Source of the DNA: Escherichia phage JM17
Length of the DNA stretch: 64,000 nucleotides
Direction: 5' to 3' (one strand)
Sequence record: PP400779
The notes under the pieces are model-generated. The model saw only the letters and a program-made list of their open reading frames with translations, was not told the origin of the DNA and did not search any database. This document shows, in pieces, positions 5,098 through 11,062 of this stretch; position 1 is the first letter of the stretch; each line of letters begins with the position of its first letter. The translations under genes and the position numbers were made by a program.

Positions 5098-5403
5098 ATG
5101 AGTCTTTATACTGAACTGAATAAAAAATCTGAAGAATCTGCTGAAACTATTTTTAAAAACGTGCAAAAGCGTATTTTAGAAAAGATGTATAACACTGCAG
5201 CTAAAGGTGAAAAATCTTGCCGGTTTCCGATTAGGTGTTCTTCAGATTTATGCGCAAATACTATTGAATGGCTGGAAAGTGAAGGTCTTACGGTAGAGAA
5301 AAACCCGGCGACTTCTATTGACAGCGAATCATATATTAGTATTTCTTGGGATAAACCACGTATGAATGAAGGACACTACAAGTTGTTAAGTTGGAAAAAT
5401 TAA
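5098..5403 (+). CDS. hypothetical protein
   Basis: ORF behind a GTTTAC...TACTAT promoter and GAGGAAAA SD. Confidence 0.4.
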   Translation: MSLYTELNKKSEESAETIFKNVQKRILEKMYNTAAKGEKSCRFPIRCSSDLCANTIEWLESEGLTVEKNPATSIDSESYISISWDKPRMNEGHYKLLSWKN

Positions 5404-5471
5404 AAATAATGATGTACAAGCACCAAGGATGGTGATACTATAGACTTATCAACTACAGAGGAGTAAACAAA

Positions 5472-5636
5472 ATGACTACTTTAATTATTTGGTTCGATGA
5501 AAATGAAGAAACATACTGTGTGAATATTGGTGAAAGTCCAATGCCTGAATTTGAATCCTCGGATAAAAACTCTGTTGTATCTTGGGCTGAAGGTTATAAA
5601 GCCGCTAAAGGTGACGTTGAAATAATTTACATCTAA
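5472..5636 (+). CDS. small hypothetical protein (54 aa)
   Basis: not in track (under 60 aa); ATG preceded by AGAGGAG and a TGTACA...TACTAT promoter. Confidence 0.3.
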   Translation: MTTLIIWFDENEETYCVNIGESPMPEFESSDKNSVVSWAEGYKAAKGDVEIIYI

Positions 5637-5683
5637 GTACGTTTATGTTATAGTAATCACATCAAATCAAGAGGAGAAACAAA

Positions 5684-5911
5684 ATGGCTACAGTTAGTAT
5701 TGATGTCGTTGATTATGAATACACTGAAGAAGTTATTCGCAACCGTCACCCTGAAGTTCGTATCGATTCAGTCCAAGATTCCAAGTTTTGGACAACTGAG
5801 CTTAATCTGAGCGGTCCTTATGAAGCTGTTAAGAAGTTCATGGTTGAAGAATACTGCGAAGGCATGCACCCCGAAGACACCAAGTTTTATGTCAATTTGA
5901 TTAAAAAATAA
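5684..5911 (+). CDS. hypothetical protein
   Basis: ORF with SD AGAGGAGAA. Confidence 0.4.
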   Translation: MATVSIDVVDYEYTEEVIRNRHPEVRIDSVQDSKFWTTELNLSGPYEAVKKFMVEEYCEGMHPEDTKFYVNLIKK

Positions 5912-5960
5912 TTTACAAACTCTTGAGAGCAGAGTATAATGCTCTCGTTGGATAATAAAC
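5912..5960 (+). repeat. PeSL-like promoter cassette, copy A of a duplicated ~48-bp element
   Basis: ATTTACAAACTCTTGAGAGCAGAGTATAATGCTCTC...GGATAATAAA; nearly identical copy at 33140-33188. Confidence 0.6.
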
Positions 5961-5981
5961 CACCAATTGAAAGGTAATAAT

Positions 5982-6575
5982 ATGAACACACTGAAGAAAC
6001 TTGTTGAATTCATCCGCACTAAACTGGGTACTGCTATGGCTAAAAATCTGACTGTCGAAGAACAGTATAACGCAGCTGCAGATAAGTTGATCACCCAAAT
6101 CAAAGAACTAAAAACGGCTTCTGTTAAATCTATTAATGAAGAAAAACGTATTCGCGAACTTGTTAATGAAAAGAACAAGCAAGCCGCTTCTAAGGAACGT
6201 GAAATTCGTAAGCTCCTGGCTGAAGGACAAGATGTTACTATGCATGCTAAGCTTGGTCTTCTGTATCGTCGAACCGCCGAACAACTTAATACAAAAGCTG
6301 ACGGGTATGCCGCTATGCGAATTGAAATTGCTCGTAAGGTGGTTGAACTTGATGATGCTCGTCAGAATCTGGCAATCAAACTCGAATACATTCGTGAAAC
6401 TCGAGCAGCCAATGCCCTTGGTATCTCTACGGCTGATGATGTAATTGAAATCGCTGCACTGACTAAGGTTGATATCGAAGACACTCTGACTCGTGTTGAA
6501 ACGTTCAATGGCACTCCAGCCGGCGTCGAAACCACTTCTGCTGATGTACAAGAATATATTAACTCTTTGAAATAA
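5982..6575 (+). CDS. coiled-coil protein, possibly PspA/IM30-like
   Basis: 198 aa, heptad-rich Lys/Glu/Ala composition; GAAAGG SD; family assignment tentative. Confidence 0.35.
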
Positions 6576-6584
6576 AATAATACG

Positions 6585-6608
6585 GAGGACTCCGGTCCTC
6601 CTTTTGGA
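6585..6608 (+). terminator. rho-independent terminator
   Basis: GGAGGAC-TCCG-GTCCTCC followed by TTTTGG. Confidence 0.55.
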
Positions 6609-6624
6609 TAATAAAGGAGTTAAC

Positions 6625-7041
6625 ATGCGAAACCAAAATAATGATATTGACTCAATGTTCGAAGAGTTCCGAGATAAGGTAAATCCACCTACGTCTTTAG
6701 TTGATTCATTACGATATGTTGCAACTGGACGTAAATGGTACTGGTCGTCTTCTTATGAGACCACCGAGAAAACGGCTAGCCATAGCAGAAAATCTTTATT
6801 AGCCCCAGGTATTATGATTCATGATATCGGAGCTATTGCTAAACTAGTTGCAGACCATGATATTAGATTCACTGATTTCGTTGCTCCTACATGGTCTGTT
6901 TGTTGTTTAAACACCGAATTGGAATATATCAGTGAACGTTCAGATGATTACATAGGCTTTAGAGACAAGCTTTTAAGGTCTAACATGTTTTATATTGATA
7001 CAGAAGTTCTAGTCAATAATAAAAATACTACTTCACTTTAA
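6625..7041 (+). CDS. hypothetical protein
   Basis: AAGGAG SD then ATG 6625. Confidence 0.4.
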   Translation: MRNQNNDIDSMFEEFRDKVNPPTSLVDSLRYVATGRKWYWSSSYETTEKTASHSRKSLLAPGIMIHDIGAIAKLVADHDIRFTDFVAPTWSVCCLNTELEYISERSDDYIGFRDKLLRSNMFYIDTEVLVNNKNTTSL

Positions 7042-7192
7042 TCGTCGATTCTGAAACTATGTATGAAGGCAAGCCTTTGCTTAAGAGAGTTGATGCTTTA
7101 AGTGCTATTGATGCGCTTTATGAAACTATGGTTGTTAGTCCTAATTTCACTAACAATTTAATCCTTGAGCAATTTATTAAGGAATGTAGAAA

Positions 7193-7498
7193 ATGAGTAA
7201 GATTATTGAAATTAAAGTACCAGAGTTTAATGATGCCAAATCCGCTTCAGATGCAATTTATAAACTTCTGAATCAAGCTGAACGTATCGAAGAAGAAGCA
7301 ACAAAGATCGCAGACCAATATGCCGTATCATTTTCTGTAGGTGATTATGGTAGCGGTCGTACTTATTATCCTAAGGGTGAAATCGTATCCCAGTGGATGA
7401 AAAATGAAATTGAAAATAATGGTGGCGATGTTAAGCGTGAAGGTGATGGTTACGTTATTACTGAAGGTGCTTGGGTTTCGTCTTCTGCGTTGTGCTAA
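7193..7498 (+). CDS. small protein, member 1 of tandem family ending GAWVSSSALC
   Basis: 101 aa; C-terminal G-W-V-S/A-S-S-x-x-C shared with the next two ORFs. Confidence 0.45.
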   Translation: MSKIIEIKVPEFNDAKSASDAIYKLLNQAERIEEEATKIADQYAVSFSVGDYGSGRTYYPKGEIVSQWMKNEIENNGGDVKREGDGYVITEGAWVSSSALC

Positions 7499-7507
7499 GG
7501 AATCATT

Positions 7508-7780
7508 ATGTCTAAAGAACAAACCGAACTGGCTGAAGCTGTAGCAAAAATCTATGCAGCTATTGAGGCTGCCAAAGAAATTGCTGATAAACAAAACACA
7601 ACATTCGATTTGTACCCAGCTTATGGTATGGGTGGAACCTATCATTCACCAGGACATCTTAAAGCCGATCTTGAACGTTGTACAAAAAACGGCTATGCTG
7701 AATGGGCTGACGTTTACCAATACGACTACAACCTGAGCCTCGAAACTGGTGGTTGGGTCGCATCTTCTCACACTTGCTAA
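7508..7780 (+). CDS. small protein, member 2 of tandem family ending GGWVASSHTC
   Basis: 90 aa; AAGGAA SD; conserved C-terminal motif. Confidence 0.45.
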   Translation: MSKEQTELAEAVAKIYAAIEAAKEIADKQNTTFDLYPAYGMGGTYHSPGHLKADLERCTKNGYAEWADVYQYDYNLSLETGGWVASSHTC

Positions 7781-7789
7781 GGAAACAAT

Positions 7790-7987
7790 ATGTCTCGTGA
7801 ATTAGATTGTGCTGTACGTACGGCAGTAGCTGCCCTGGAAAACCTGTTCCAAATTGCAACAGAAGAACGCGAAGAAGTTACATTATGGATTGAAGATAAC
7901 GCAGGTCTGAATCTCCAGAACGCAATCTCATTATCAAATAATAGTATTACTGTTCAAGGCTGGGTATCATCTAGTTATTCTTGCTAA
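7790..7987 (+). CDS. small protein, member 3 of tandem family ending QGWVSSSYSC
   Basis: 65 aa; AAGGAAA SD; conserved C-terminal motif. Confidence 0.45.
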   Translation: MSRELDCAVRTAVAALENLFQIATEEREEVTLWIEDNAGLNLQNAISLSNNSITVQGWVSSSYSC

Positions 7988-8049
7988 AACAGTTTACAAC
8001 AAGATAGGGCTATGTTATAGTAGTCCTATCAAATTAAATGGAGTCCACA

Positions 8050-8289
8050 ATGATTTATTACGAAAGTATTGGAACCAAAGTGGTTGCTAAAACTATTACT
8101 CGTGAAAAGTTTGCAAAGATATTCGATATGCGTTATAAAAAATCTGAACACAAAGGCATCCGATTCGAAGATGCGCACTGTACAATTTGCCCTTATAATG
8201 AAGACATAAACGGTACAATCGTTCCATTGGTAGAAGCTTCACATGATGACCTCTGGGATGAATATAATATCGCATGTCGTGAAATTTAA
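8050..8289 (+). CDS. hypothetical protein
   Basis: ATG 8050 after GGAG (alternative ATG 8038); Cys/His pairs present. Confidence 0.35.
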   Translation: MIYYESIGTKVVAKTITREKFAKIFDMRYKKSEHKGIRFEDAHCTICPYNEDINGTIVPLVEASHDDLWDEYNIACREI

Positions 8290-8317
8290 GTTAATGAATT
8301 AATCCGAGGAAAATATT

Positions 8318-9274
8318 ATGATGTTAGTTATTGGTTCTCGTGCACTTCACTATCACGGTCTTATTGATTCTAGCGCTATCAAAAATAGTGATTGGGACTT
8401 TATTGCGGACCAAGGTTCTTGGAATGCATTCAAAAATCAAATGATGGGTGTATATGTCCACCAAGATAACCCTGATGTCCAAGTTTTCAAATGCTTCCAT
8501 AATGGACGCGAAACTCATTTTGAAGCATATATTGTTCCGGCAATCACTAATGTCCGTGAATTAGTCGGTGAACTCACTCCTGAAGATTTCACGTCTTCTT
8601 ATGACCTTTTAAAATACGCCAAGAAAAATTTGACTAAAGACTGTTTGAACGGGTTTTACTGGGCAACTCCTGAGATATGTCTTGCAATTAAGATGTCTCA
8701 TCGTTTCAAGAAAAATAATCCATTCTTTTTAAAGACTATGAACCATATTCAGTATCTTCGTGGTAAAGGTGTTACACTGAACGATGAACTTACTGAAATT
8801 ATGCTGAAACGCCAGAAAGAAACCTTGAACTATGCTCACCCGGTTCTTGACACTTCTAAAAGTGCGTTCTTTAAAGATGACATCTATACATATGACCATG
8901 ATACTATTCATGAAGCCATTGCACTAACAGACCGTCCAGCGTATACATTTTATATGAAAGACGGTTCTGAAGTCATGACCTCACGAGAGAAGTTCGAATC
9001 GTTACCAGAAATGGTCAAATTGGCCGGTGTATATGAAGAATCATGTGTACTAGCATTAGAACGTTCTCAGATTCCTAATGACTTTAAAATTAACCCTGAA
9101 GCCAGTTTCATGATGGCATTGGAAAAGGTCTGTACAAGCATCACCTCCGGTTGGTTCCGTGAATACGCCTGGGAAAGCTACAGCAAAGTAGTAAGTATGT
9201 ACCAAAGTTTAGGACATGACGATTACGTCAAACGTTTCAAACAAAATTTCCATATGGTAAAACCTTTCAAATAA
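8318..9274 (+). CDS. hypothetical protein with nucleotidyltransferase-fold-like N-terminal motif
   Basis: 318 aa; VIGSRALHYHGL...SDWDF resembles the GS...DxD minimal NTase signature. Confidence 0.4.
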   Translation: MMLVIGSRALHYHGLIDSSAIKNSDWDFIADQGSWNAFKNQMMGVYVHQDNPDVQVFKCFHNGRETHFEAYIVPAITNVRELVGELTPEDFTSSYDLLKYAKKNLTKDCLNGFYWATPEICLAIKMSHRFKKNNPFFLKTMNHIQYLRGKGVTLNDELTEIMLKRQKETLNYAHPVLDTSKSAFFKDDIYTYDHDTIHEAIALTDRPAYTFYMKDGSEVMTSREKFESLPEMVKLAGVYEESCVLALERSQIPNDFKINPEASFMMALEKVCTSITSGWFREYAWESYSKVVSMYQSLGHDDYVKRFKQNFHMVKPFK

Positions 9275-9344
9275 TTTCGCAAAACTGTTTACACAATTAT
9301 AGGACTATGTTATAGTAGTCCTATTAAAACATGAGGAGAATATT

Positions 9345-9650
9345 ATGAAATTAGGCGAAACCAATCGAATCGGTCTTTTTACAATATTTGCATCACCTTT
9401 TTACGTAGCTCTTTCTGTTGCAGTATTACAAAAGGCTTACAGTATGGATGGTGTTCCTGGTTTTGTATTCTTATCACCGTTTTTATTATTCGTCGGAGCT
9501 TTGTTATTATATGCCACGACTAGTTTCGACCATAACGTTTGGGTTAATTATAAATGTAAATTGTCTGAAGAAGAACACGCAGAAGCTCGTAAAAAAGCTA
9601 TTGAATCTACCAATCTAGAAAATTTCATTAAAGAATGCCGAGGAAAATAA
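9345..9650 (+). CDS. small membrane protein
   Basis: two hydrophobic helices. Confidence 0.4.
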   Translation: MKLGETNRIGLFTIFASPFYVALSVAVLQKAYSMDGVPGFVFLSPFLLFVGALLLYATTSFDHNVWVNYKCKLSEEEHAEARKKAIESTNLENFIKECRGK

Positions 9651-9651
9651 T

Positions 9652-10338
9652 ATGAATAGTTCTAAAGTGTTTAATAGTCAAGCTCGTGCAGTAGGTGGTT
9701 TTGCTCATGCGATTAAAAACGACCAGATTAAAAACGAGCCTATGTTCTTTAACTGCGATTTGAATTTTGCTTTTGATAATGGCGGTCCAATTACTCGTAG
9801 CTTTATCCAAAATCTCCCTGACGATTGGAAAGACTCGGATGTAGTATTTGATTCACGAGTCCACATGCTGATGCCTGGTTGGTACCCTGCTATCCCAGGT
9901 TATCACCATGACGATGTACCACGCCCGGATATTCCGGTTGGTCAACACTTTATTACTGCAGGACAACCTGACTATGACAATCCTCGCTATTTGTCTGAAC
10001 ATATTCTTGGTCTTGTTAACGCTGATGTGTGTCCTACTCATTTTGCAACAGGAACTGCAGAGTTCAGTCAGATTCCTGATGGTGAACTTATCTATCGCCA
10101 GTGGCACAAAGAAGTCCTCGAAAAAATCGAAAAAGGCGAACTAGAGAAATGGGAAGCTCCAGATCGTACTCTTCTTCAGTTTGATTGGCAAACATGGCAC
10201 ACTGGTTCTCGTGCAATTAGTAACGGATGGCGTTGGTTCGGACGTGTATCTCGTAATACAGACCGAGTTAAAAAGATTACCAATGAAATTCGTGTCAATG
10301 CCCAAGTTTATCTGGAATTCCCTATGGAAGGCTGGTAA
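9652..10338 (+). CDS. hypothetical protein
   Basis: 228 aa; no motif recognised. Confidence 0.45.
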   Translation: MNSSKVFNSQARAVGGFAHAIKNDQIKNEPMFFNCDLNFAFDNGGPITRSFIQNLPDDWKDSDVVFDSRVHMLMPGWYPAIPGYHHDDVPRPDIPVGQHFITAGQPDYDNPRYLSEHILGLVNADVCPTHFATGTAEFSQIPDGELIYRQWHKEVLEKIEKGELEKWEAPDRTLLQFDWQTWHTGSRAISNGWRWFGRVSRNTDRVKKITNEIRVNAQVYLEFPMEGW

Positions 10339-10829
10339 TGATTAACAAAACATATTGGTCTAATATAGACGATGGCAACGAAGGTATTTCGTATTATTCA
10401 GTAGATTGGACAGGATGTCCATCCTACTTAGTGAAACATATTTGCCAAGAATTTAAAATCAACCAGCCAGCAGGTATTATCGTGAACAGATACATTAATG
10501 GATATCAACCTATCGATGAAGTAATACGAACAACTCAAGCTGAGCTTGAAAAGTTTTTCAATAAGTGCCAATGGATAACAGGATGGATTATATTTGTACC
10601 GTCAGTGTGGTTTTTTAGTACTAAAGTAAGTGCCTTTGCTATACTAGATATTATCGCTATCTTATTAGCATCTACTATCGTAAGTATAATTGGCGGTATA
10701 ATTGGTGGAGGTACTGTAGGCATCATTATTAATCTTGTTAAAAGTAGTTTACAAGAACGTAAAGACAAGATAAAGGCCAAGAATAATGAAGTTGAACGTT
10801 TTATTACCGAATGCAGGAATTTGAGATGA
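10338..10829 (+). CDS. membrane protein with glycine-zipper helix (IIGGIIGGGTVGIII)
   Basis: 163 aa; ATGA overlap with upstream ORF. Confidence 0.45.
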   Translation: MINKTYWSNIDDGNEGISYYSVDWTGCPSYLVKHICQEFKINQPAGIIVNRYINGYQPIDEVIRTTQAELEKFFNKCQWITGWIIFVPSVWFFSTKVSAFAILDIIAILLASTIVSIIGGIIGGGTVGIIINLVKSSLQERKDKIKAKNNEVERFITECRNLR

Positions 10830-11062
10830 GTATAGCAATTTACATTAAATCAGAATCATGTGATAGTTATCTGTACACATACGATAAAGATGTGTCAGAA
10901 GAAAAAATCAAAGACGATCTTAATATGGACCTTGATATGTTCTGTCCTATTGCAGATTACAAACTTGCGGTCTCTAATAGTGAAAGTCCATCTAAAGAAA
11001 CGCGCATTGAAGAATTTATATCTGAACTAATGGCCAAATCATGGGACCGAGATGATGAGTAA
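10826..11062 (+). CDS. hypothetical acidic protein
   Basis: ATGA overlap with upstream ORF. Confidence 0.4.
   Translation: MSIAIYIKSESCDSYLYTYDKDVSEEKIKDDLNMDLDMFCPIADYKLAVSNSESPSKETRIEEFISELMAKSWDRDDE

Follow-up and report, generated by a model that had tools for sequence, protein, structure and literature searches.

Several pairs of a Pol-beta-fold enzyme and a protein partner are known in which the enzyme nucleotidylates the protein: GlnD and PII, GlnE and glutamine synthetase, MntA and HepT, and MdcG or CitX paired with an acyl-carrier subunit, that of malonate decarboxylase or of citrate lyase. Of the relatives with this fold, the MenT toxins extend tRNA 3' ends, and the ANT and Lnu enzymes nucleotidylate hydroxyl groups. 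In the MenAT1 system of Mycobacterium tuberculosis, which consists of the small protein MenA1 and the nucleotidyltransferase (NTase) MenT1, MenA1 induces auto-phosphorylation of a threonine in the active site of MenT1 (PMC10435456, PMC11375011). In this work we have investigated a stretch of 64,000 nucleotides of Escherichia phage JM17 (sequence record PP400779), which we call the window, and within it a tandem triplet of small genes at 7193-7987 whose products share a C-terminal tail ending in cysteine, together with a predicted NTase encoded downstream of them. MenAT1 is the closest analogue of this locus, although it differs in its defining features. We observed the conservation of the protein family and of its tail, purifying selection, the linkage of the tail genes to the enzyme gene, and the catalytic signature and fold class of the enzyme, and this suggests that the Cys-tail proteins and the enzyme constitute a conserved two-component phage module with one to five tail proteins per enzyme. 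The module is uncharacterised and widespread among phages. Its parts in the window are the following.

7193-7498, + strand: Cys-tail protein 1 (ORF1), 101 amino acids (aa), ends EGAWVSSSALC*; phrog_899, E 2e-22
7472-7495, + strand: tail codons W-V-S-S-S-A-L-C of protein 1, from the motif scan
7508-7780, + strand: Cys-tail protein 2 (ORF2), 90 aa, ends GGWVASSHTC*; phrog_899, E 3.5e-19
7754-7777, + strand: tail codons W-V-A-S-S-H-T-C of protein 2, from the motif scan
7790-7987, + strand: Cys-tail protein 3 (ORF3), 65 aa, ends QGWVSSSYSC*; phrog_4882, E 1.7e-36
7961-7984, + strand: tail codons W-V-S-S-S-Y-S-C of protein 3, from the motif scan
8318-9274, + strand: predicted nucleotidyltransferase, RB69ORF134c, 318 aa; Pfam domains DUF7277 (residues 2-101) and DUF7275 (residues 120-305)

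The three open reading frames (ORFs) were found exactly as a preliminary description of this DNA had given them, with the same coordinates, the lengths of 101, 90 and 65 aa and the endings G/A-W-V-S/A-S-S-x-x-C. A six-frame pattern scan of the 64 kb found W-x-[SA]-S-S-x-x-C-stop at these three sites only. Because the motif closes 3 of the 243 window ORFs of at least 40 aa, just seven of which end in Cys, and none of the 272 ORFs in the 80 kb of T4 that were scanned, chance can be excluded as the origin of the shared endings. The genes themselves are real: each is preceded by a good ribosome-binding site, orthologues occur in more than 130 Mosigvirus genomes, and the ratio of non-synonymous to synonymous substitution rates (dN/dS) against orthologues of 50-63% identity is 0.14-0.45 (0.14-0.34 for ORF1), so that all three ORFs are protein-coding and under purifying selection. 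RB69-like Mosigvirus genomes (Straboviridae, Tevenvirinae) match the region at 97-99% identity. The equivalents in RB69 are RB69ORF139c together with 138c for ORF1, RB69ORF137c for ORF2 and RB69ORF136c for ORF3, all annotated as "hypothetical protein". The triplet lies in a variable block with tRNA genes on one side and gene e on the other. The RB69 annotation lists no T4 counterpart for RB69ORF132c-139c and, since e.3 abuts e.2 directly in T4, RB69 has the block ORF139c-ORF132c as an insertion with respect to T4.

Are these proteins unrelated bodies which carry the same tag? The preliminary description regarded their N-termini as different, but ORF1 and ORF2 align over 57 residues including the Y-G-x-G-x-T-Y loop (E 3e-4), and both belong to phrog_899. 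ORF2 has the canonical architecture of the family, with an N-terminal helix, the AYGMGGTY loop (YGMGGTY) and the tail GWVASSHTC. The loop of ORF1 is of the type GDYGSGRTYYP (YGSGRTY) and its tail is AWVSSSALC; ORF3, with the tail GWVSSSYSC, has a reduced body without the YGMGG loop. Outside the tail, the similarity of ORF3 to the others is marginal (ORF3-type against ORF2-type profile with the tail removed: hhalign E 0.0017, probability 15%); this alignment keeps the N-terminal helix and the first strand in register, and ORF3 is probably a reduced version of the ORF1/ORF2 fold. The three ORFs are paralogues with a common fold, rather than unrelated proteins carrying a tag. The earlier suggestion that the ending is a shared signal for processing, modification or targeting is supported in part, as the tail is by far the most conserved portion of these proteins, is kept on ORF3-type bodies and nearly always has an NTase encoded next to it. 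The adjacent NTase is a plausible candidate for the enzyme that recognizes or modifies the tail. In the AlphaFold2 model of ORF2 (predicted local distance difference test, pLDDT, 85.9) a long helix is followed by a beta-hairpin, two short helices, a last strand G-G-W-V-A and a short turn, and pLDDT is lowest over the last ten residues. Two frameshifts were also seen among the orthologues. In RB69 (L001 7327-7633) the orthologue of ORF1 is frameshifted into ORF139c/138c and its tail is GAWVSSPALC, with Ser(-3) replaced by Pro; in phage mar005P1 it is the orthologue of ORF2 that is frameshifted (P0012). Single paralogues are therefore apparently dispensable in propagated strains.

The search with a hidden Markov model of the family covered 1.84 billion representatives (E<=1e-3; clusters at 50% identity). 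It returned 399 matches at this threshold, nearly all of them 65-175 aa long and matched up to the last residue. About ten giant low-complexity repeat proteins (2-5 kaa) which topped the list were discarded as spurious matches to Gly/Thr-rich loops, and the family then comprises ~390 small acidic clusters. All close relatives found by a word-indexed search keep the tail, including proteins of 80-82 aa, two of which (P0049 and P0050) are encoded on contigs of about 360-370 kb. A typical member is built of an amphipathic helix (..EAExIADExG), hxFxF, xYGMGGTYYP, which is the loop of a beta-hairpin, a variable acidic linker and the ending (E)GGWxSSSxxC; the median net charge of the representatives is -8, and YGMGG is present in 115 of 135. 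The preliminary description had proposed a homology search for the motif: of 135 small, divergent representatives, 126 have Cys as the exact last residue, and the other nine mostly have one extra residue past the Cys. Among the 126, W(-7), S(-4) and C are invariant, position -3 is Ser in 124 and Thr in 2, position -5 is S, A or P save for one Thr, and G(-8) is present in 89.

The tail is not tied to one kind of body or to one spacing. It is also found on bodies without the YGMGG loop (ORF3 of the window; L007 467-757), and a spacer-less form, W-x-x-S-S-C, occurs in the same arrays as the spacer type, with 22 such tails counted in the pooled loci described below; there are rarer variants as well, for example W-N-S-S-N-C-F. 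Extra W-x(1,2)-S-S units stand in the acidic linker of 26 of the 135 representatives, as compared with 1.05 +/- 0.97 in shuffled sequences. The loop-less bodies, the repeated W-x-S-S units and the spacer-less variants indicate that W-x-x-S-S, closed by a Cys at the terminus, acts like a short linear motif of an acidic context and is not just a piece of hydrophobic core. Recognizable paralogue types (GDYGxG, AYGMGG and spacer-less) co-occur in distant phage families, which argues for distinct roles with one handle over redundant copies. The databases add little to this picture. Nothing significant was found for the three proteins in scans of Pfam, NCBIfam and PADLOC; the family profile hit only designed helical proteins among the PDB sequences (E>0.002) and no other chain, MenA1 included; and our literature search found nothing on these genes, the family or the motif. 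The only database families which hold the three proteins are phrog_899 and phrog_4882.

The enzyme gene starts 331 bp past ORF3 on the same strand. The linkage between tail genes and enzyme genes was tested both ways, from the enzyme (IMG/VR loci at 97% to 40% identity) and from the tail protein (locus search with the pattern YGMGGTY and a 15-sequence alignment). Starting from the enzyme, 27 of 30 loci had one to four canonical tail ORFs just upstream in the same orientation, two had spacer-less variants directly upstream and one had none. Starting from the tail, the enzyme was found downstream on the same strand in 34 of 37 loci, and the other three contigs end within 1 kb. When the loci were pooled and de-duplicated, in 52 of 56 enzyme loci the 2.5 kb upstream held one to five tail ORFs on the same strand (one, two, three, four and five ORFs in 12, 24, 7, 7 and 2 loci; median gap 100 bp). 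The four loci scored as zero include one with tail ORFs downstream, one that is truncated, one with variant tails and one, L021, which truly lacks them. Elsewhere in these loci the motif occurs in 2 of 3398 ORFs, both directly downstream of a fragment of the enzyme gene. The linkage is kept in several Straboviridae genera, in Acinetobacter T4-like phages, in Phapecoctavirus tuntematon, a member of another subfamily with the same three paralogue types, and in jumbo phages of ~370 kb. A 371-kb jumbo-phage contig, for example, carries tandem tail genes (...GGWVASSQTC and ...GRWMGSSDFC) and, two genes later, a DUF7275 protein 55% identical to the window enzyme. Both components appear to be missing from T4: e.3 abuts e.2, and no family member was found in the 80 kb of T4 that were scanned. 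Among 185,579 bacterial and archaeal species, each represented by one genome, only five loci were found, all of them on contigs of metagenome-assembled genomes and three with tail ORFs, so the module is apparently near-confined to phages.

The genes around the module drew our attention in two cases. On the 371-kb contig (L004 689-3478) the module lies ~2.5 kb downstream of genes for an Rnl1-type RNA ligase and a polynucleotide kinase-phosphatase (PNKP), and in RB69 it is near tRNA genes and nudE. These neighbours may point to a connection with the metabolism of RNA ends, or their presence may be coincidental.

The enzyme is predicted to be a Pol-beta-type NTase. Its AlphaFold2 model (pLDDT 92.3) has the NTase fold, MenT/ANT-like and closest to the MenT toxins, to whose fold it is similar. 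The Pol-beta signature, hG[GS], [DE]x[DE] and a third carboxylate, is present, with G6 and S7 in 48 of 49 homologues and D25, D27 and E69 in all 49. The family is large: it comprises 2211 clusters when grouped at 90% identity, and 733 records of phage genomes contain it. Pfam gave no match to DUF1814/AbiEii, only to DUF7277 and DUF7275, and PADLOC found nothing. There is also no T39-type phosphoacceptor of MenT1 at -2 of DxD: judged by motif register alone, the 49 homologues have N, C, P, D, V or Q at the corresponding position 23. The invariant residues of DUF7275 include K125, H128, K139, T140, R165, E168, Y172, H174, H194, D195, H198, E240, E241, C243, E248, R249, K270 and C272, and the domain has the motif S-x-T-S-G-x-F-R. 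Among them, the invariant Y-D-H-D-x-I-H-E (residues 193-199) resembles metal sites of the HD/PDE type, and this motif suggests that DUF7275 may hold an HD/PDE-like metal site; the invariant C243 and C272 are on neighbouring helices. NrdC.11 of T4, annotated as a nucleotidyltransferase, was considered as a relative of the window enzyme and rejected, being unrelated on comparison. A distant enzyme homologue of Brevibacillus phage Sundance is directly preceded by an ORF (L084 2675-2956) which ends in EEEEYSSSYYEEEEYSSSYYEED, an acidic aromatic-Ser-Ser-Ser repeat without Cys and possibly a distant counterpart of the W-x-S-S tail.

What could be the purpose of such a tail next to such an enzyme? 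We think it likely that the Cys-tail proteins act jointly with the enzyme. As for how, we propose that the tail is a docking or acceptor peptide for the enzyme, with transfer to a tail Ser as the most likely chemistry, and we give this statement as a whole a probability of about 40%. We base it on the tail being invariant, rich in nucleophiles, sometimes repeated and carried by a set of several diverged paralogues, kept as such across phage families, beside an apparently active NTase. The invariant tail would enter the catalytic cleft as a short linear peptide, in the way the tRNA 3' end enters MenT. Its Trp would be the anchor, and the Cys with a nearby carboxylate would act as a second anchor or as a metal ligand. 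The enzyme would then move a nucleotidyl (or phosphoryl) group onto the hydroxyl of a tail Ser, and the diverged bodies of the paralogues could afterwards act on different targets in host takeover or counter-defence. The active site of MenT can transfer phosphate to a Ser/Thr hydroxyl (PMC11375011). We infer a physical interaction of the tail with the enzyme; the covalent transfer to Ser and the downstream role of the tail proteins are speculative. A wider form of the proposal, in which the module is a new protein-tagging system of large phages of Gram-negative hosts and a MenT-like NTase nucleotidylates or phosphorylates the C-terminal W-x-x-S-S-(x-x)-C tail of one to five diverged effectors, has a substantial chance of being right, though less than an even one.

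Several observations weigh against the docking or acceptor role. The closest structural relatives, the MenT toxins, have tRNA rather than protein as their substrate. The motif may be partly structural, since AlphaFold2 places its Trp in a beta-strand. Nucleotidylation of Ser alone leaves the invariant Cys unaccounted for, as does every other model considered here. No Cys-tail gene adjoins the more distant homologues of the enzyme in Gordonia, Mycobacterium and Vibrio schizoT4 phages, and the enzyme can therefore do without such partners. In the RB69-like phages the tail genes are set apart from the enzyme by a hairpin, a site resembling a promoter and an unrelated gene. Lastly, the 55% identity of the window enzyme to that of the jumbo phage means that part of the linkage may reflect transfer of the block and that the loci may not all be independent; block transfer of the module clearly occurs, and the loci are phylogenetically non-independent.

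The leading rival is a role like that of MenA1. The acidic small proteins would bind to the electropositive cleft of a MenT-like NTase and hold the enzyme off, or time its action, and the tail would be a pseudo-substrate plug to which nothing is transferred. MenA1, a helical protein of 68 aa encoded upstream of its toxin, blocks the active site of MenT1 (PMC10435456), and the order of a small gene followed on the same strand by the NTase gene, at a median distance of 100 bp, is the same here. The fold of the enzyme is nearest that of the MenT toxins, and the small proteins are helical and strongly acidic. Nevertheless, a plain blocker needs no invariant thiol at the exact C-terminus, and it is hard to see why one enzyme should have one to five diverged paralogues, each under purifying selection and of types kept across phage families. 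Two residues before DxD, where MenT1 has its phosphoacceptor, neither Ser nor Thr is conserved, no PDB chain, not even MenA1, resembles the small proteins in sequence, and in RB69-like phages a terminator-like hairpin separates the genes. The carriers, moreover, are large phages, those with names being T4-like, rV5-like or jumbo, and such phages are virulent as a rule. We regard an inhibitor as unlikely, though it is the alternative we take most seriously. It is less probable still that the two components are independent effectors, the small proteins being, for example, mimics of the tRNA 3' acceptor end which decoy host toxins (AbiEii/MenT, toxSAS), and the NTase an enzyme that repairs or edits RNA ends. 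The strongly acidic bodies are like those of nucleic-acid mimics, an invariant terminal motif would mirror an invariant target, and several paralogues could match several host toxins; the genes close to the module, those for tRNAs in RB69 and those for Rnl1 and PNKP in the jumbo phage, as well as the distant enzyme homologues that function without tail proteins, fit the same idea. It is entirely inferential, however, and a shared theme alone seldom holds genes within ~100 bp of each other in more than 50 loci.

Could the tail simply be part of the fold? As a structural or metal-binding cap, it would have its Trp in the core, its Ser residues capping the last turn, and its Cys, with a carboxylate, binding a metal or linking the subunits of homo- or hetero-oligomers; in a variant of this, the tail Cys could complete a site with C243 and C272 of the enzyme, and the motif would be a fold signature and no signal at all. 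The beta-strand G-G-W-V-A followed by a short turn in the AlphaFold2 model agrees with such a cap, the Cys is the sole invariant potential metal ligand, as would suit sharing between chains, and the enzyme has two invariant Cys residues. What makes the cap improbable in our view is that W-x-S-S repeats occur in acidic, probably flexible linkers, that the distance from S-S to C varies from 0 to 2 residues, that the tail is kept on bodies with different cores and that pLDDT is lowest in just the last ten residues. Finally, several tandem precursor-like genes beside one enzyme gene call to mind peptides that are made by ribosomes and then modified post-translationally (RiPPs), in which S-x-x-C would be converted to a lanthionine or aminovinyl-cysteine (AviCys) ring or processed in some other way; an S-x-x-C carboxyl end is the AviCys arrangement of epidermin-type peptides. 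A Ser three residues before the terminal Cys is indeed present in the spacer-type tails, but it is absent from the 22 spacer-less tails, and W-x-x-S-S-C thus breaks the required spacing. RiPP precursors have a conserved leader and a variable core, which is the reverse of the pattern seen here, and we found no dehydratase, cyclase, HFCD decarboxylase, radical-SAM enzyme or protease in the neighbourhood (14 flanking ORFs, 5098-11062; Pfam and PHROG). The same very low likelihood applies to a degron or localization tag read by the host machinery, which would leave the linkage to the NTase unexplained. Ubiquitin-like sulfur carriers of the ThiS/MoaD kind were ruled out: the tails end in x-x-C with no Gly-Gly, and the partner is of the Pol-beta type with no E1-like fold.

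The remaining features concern the junctions of the triplet and the region around it.

7497-7501, + strand: Shine-Dalgarno sequence AAGGA of protein 2, which overlaps the protein 1 stop codon; read from the sequence
7779-7783, + strand: Shine-Dalgarno sequence in the same arrangement for protein 3; read from the sequence
8003-8030, + strand: hairpin after protein 3, with an 11-bp stem and a free energy (dG) of -16 kcal/mol
8038-8289, + strand: intervening small gene, RB69ORF135c, phrog_3723, 83 aa from the first ATG

The likeness of the intergenic junctions, which the preliminary description had pointed out, is genuine and has a plain cause. TGC-TAA-GGAA-N5-ATG is common to the ORF1/ORF2 and ORF2/ORF3 junctions, and this is a Shine-Dalgarno sequence (AAGGA) overlapping the preceding stop codon. 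The 3' end of ORF3 reads TGCTAAAACAG and is followed by the hairpin, whose equivalent in phage SA79RD is annotated as a rho-independent terminator; a sigma-70-like promoter match at 7993-8021 overlaps it. The 83-aa ORF between the tail genes and the enzyme shows no sign of belonging to the module; it is found there in T-even-like phages only and is not conserved beyond them. The block inserted relative to T4 also holds a conserved ORF of 228 aa (9652-10338, phrog_1843). Neither this nor the 83-aa ORF has a Pfam match, and outside the T-even-like phages neither of them is conserved beside the module. We considered a kinship of the 228-aa ORF with a 218-aa ORF near the module of the jumbo phage and rejected it, as the two are unrelated on comparison.

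Upstream of the triplet the window has undergone some rearrangement. Between e.6 and e.5, at 6584-6601, there is a perfect 7-bp GC-rich hairpin (GGAGGAC-TCCG-GTCCTCC). On either strand it has the score of a terminator, and the annotation of phage SA79RD lists it as one. Within 6604-7196, ~710-730 bp comprising e.4 and most of e.3 are deleted in comparison with RB69 and all 30 best database matches. At the deletion junction, 7173-7194, e.5 (...NNLILEQFI) is fused to the last codons of e.3 (KECRK*) via a 22-bp stretch common to both, and e.5 itself is split by a 1-bp indel into ORFs of 145 and 45 aa. A T4-type middle promoter annotated within e.3 of phage SA79RD falls inside the deleted segment. 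The "sulfurtransferase" label met in related genomes belongs to e.4, a predicted membrane protein which is deleted in the window and is unrelated to the triplet. A second recurrent motif, F-I-x-E-C-R, is C-terminal or nearly so in predicted membrane proteins of the e.3, ORF133c and e.2 types (window 7059-7196, 9345-9650 and 10338-10829), and in e.5 it stands ~10 residues before the end; in e.3 and e.5 of T4 its form is F-V-x-[DE]-C-R. In the e.5/e.3 fusion ORF (7059-7196) the codons of this motif hold the AAGGA of the next gene, with an ATGA stop/start overlap, and the same coding stretch is the recombination site of the e.4/e.3 deletion.

Although RB69 and its relatives serve as model phages, this block has been annotated in them just as "hypothetical"; it is now a defined and testable system. 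The tail is among the most sharply conserved C-terminal motifs, shared by ~390 clusters that have no Pfam entry, structure or literature, and it provides a compact peptide handle which could be used to fish for the partner. Were the tail a substrate, protein nucleotidylation would be extended to a new viral enzyme-substrate pair; were it an inhibitor, this would be the first MenAT-like regulatory pair described in T4-like, rV5-like and jumbo phages. If the tagging proposal were true, the products would be nucleotide-bearing proteins, or mimics of the tRNA acceptor end, acting on host targets, and the enzyme fold would gain a new substrate class and phages a new chemistry of takeover or counter-defence. 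In either case the module is also a promising place to look for functions in host range or anti-defence in T4-like phages used for therapy.

How, then, does the module compare with what has already been described? The PHROG families phrog_899 and phrog_4882, of unknown function, split the Cys-tail family in two and carry no function, motif or partner. From MenAT1, the closest analogue, the module differs in both components: the window enzyme has no DUF1814/AbiEii match in Pfam and the T39-type phosphoacceptor is not conserved, while the small proteins are not similar to MenA1 in sequence, number one to five paralogues instead of one and have the invariant W-x-x-S-S-x-x-C tail. The carriers of the module are large phages and apparently no bacterial chromosomes. 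Scans of the flanking ORFs showed neither a winged helix-turn-helix nor a kinase-like protein next to the enzyme, and so no antitoxin of the AbiEi or MenA3 kind known from MenAT/AbiE systems. The array of short paralogous genes with one conserved recognition element beside a single enzyme gene is reminiscent of RiPP clusters; here, however, each product is a folded domain with a length of 60-175 aa, what is conserved is an invariant C-terminal element instead of a leader, and no RiPP enzyme class is present. The GlnD, GlnE, MntA and MdcG/CitX systems share with our proposal an enzyme of the NTase fold that places a nucleotide or nucleotide-derived group on a Tyr or Ser hydroxyl of a dedicated small, often acidic partner encoded nearby. 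In those systems the acceptor is a loop Tyr or a Ser of the acyl-carrier-protein type, whereas the candidate acceptor in the phage module, where the transfer is only proposed, is a C-terminal Ser-Ser/Cys tail, and the enzyme belongs to the distinct DUF7277/DUF7275 family. ANT(2'') and LnuA, whose substrates are small molecules, lack the additional domain of the window enzyme, the helical and highly conserved DUF7275 (~190 residues), whose invariant positions include His, Asp, Cys and Arg.

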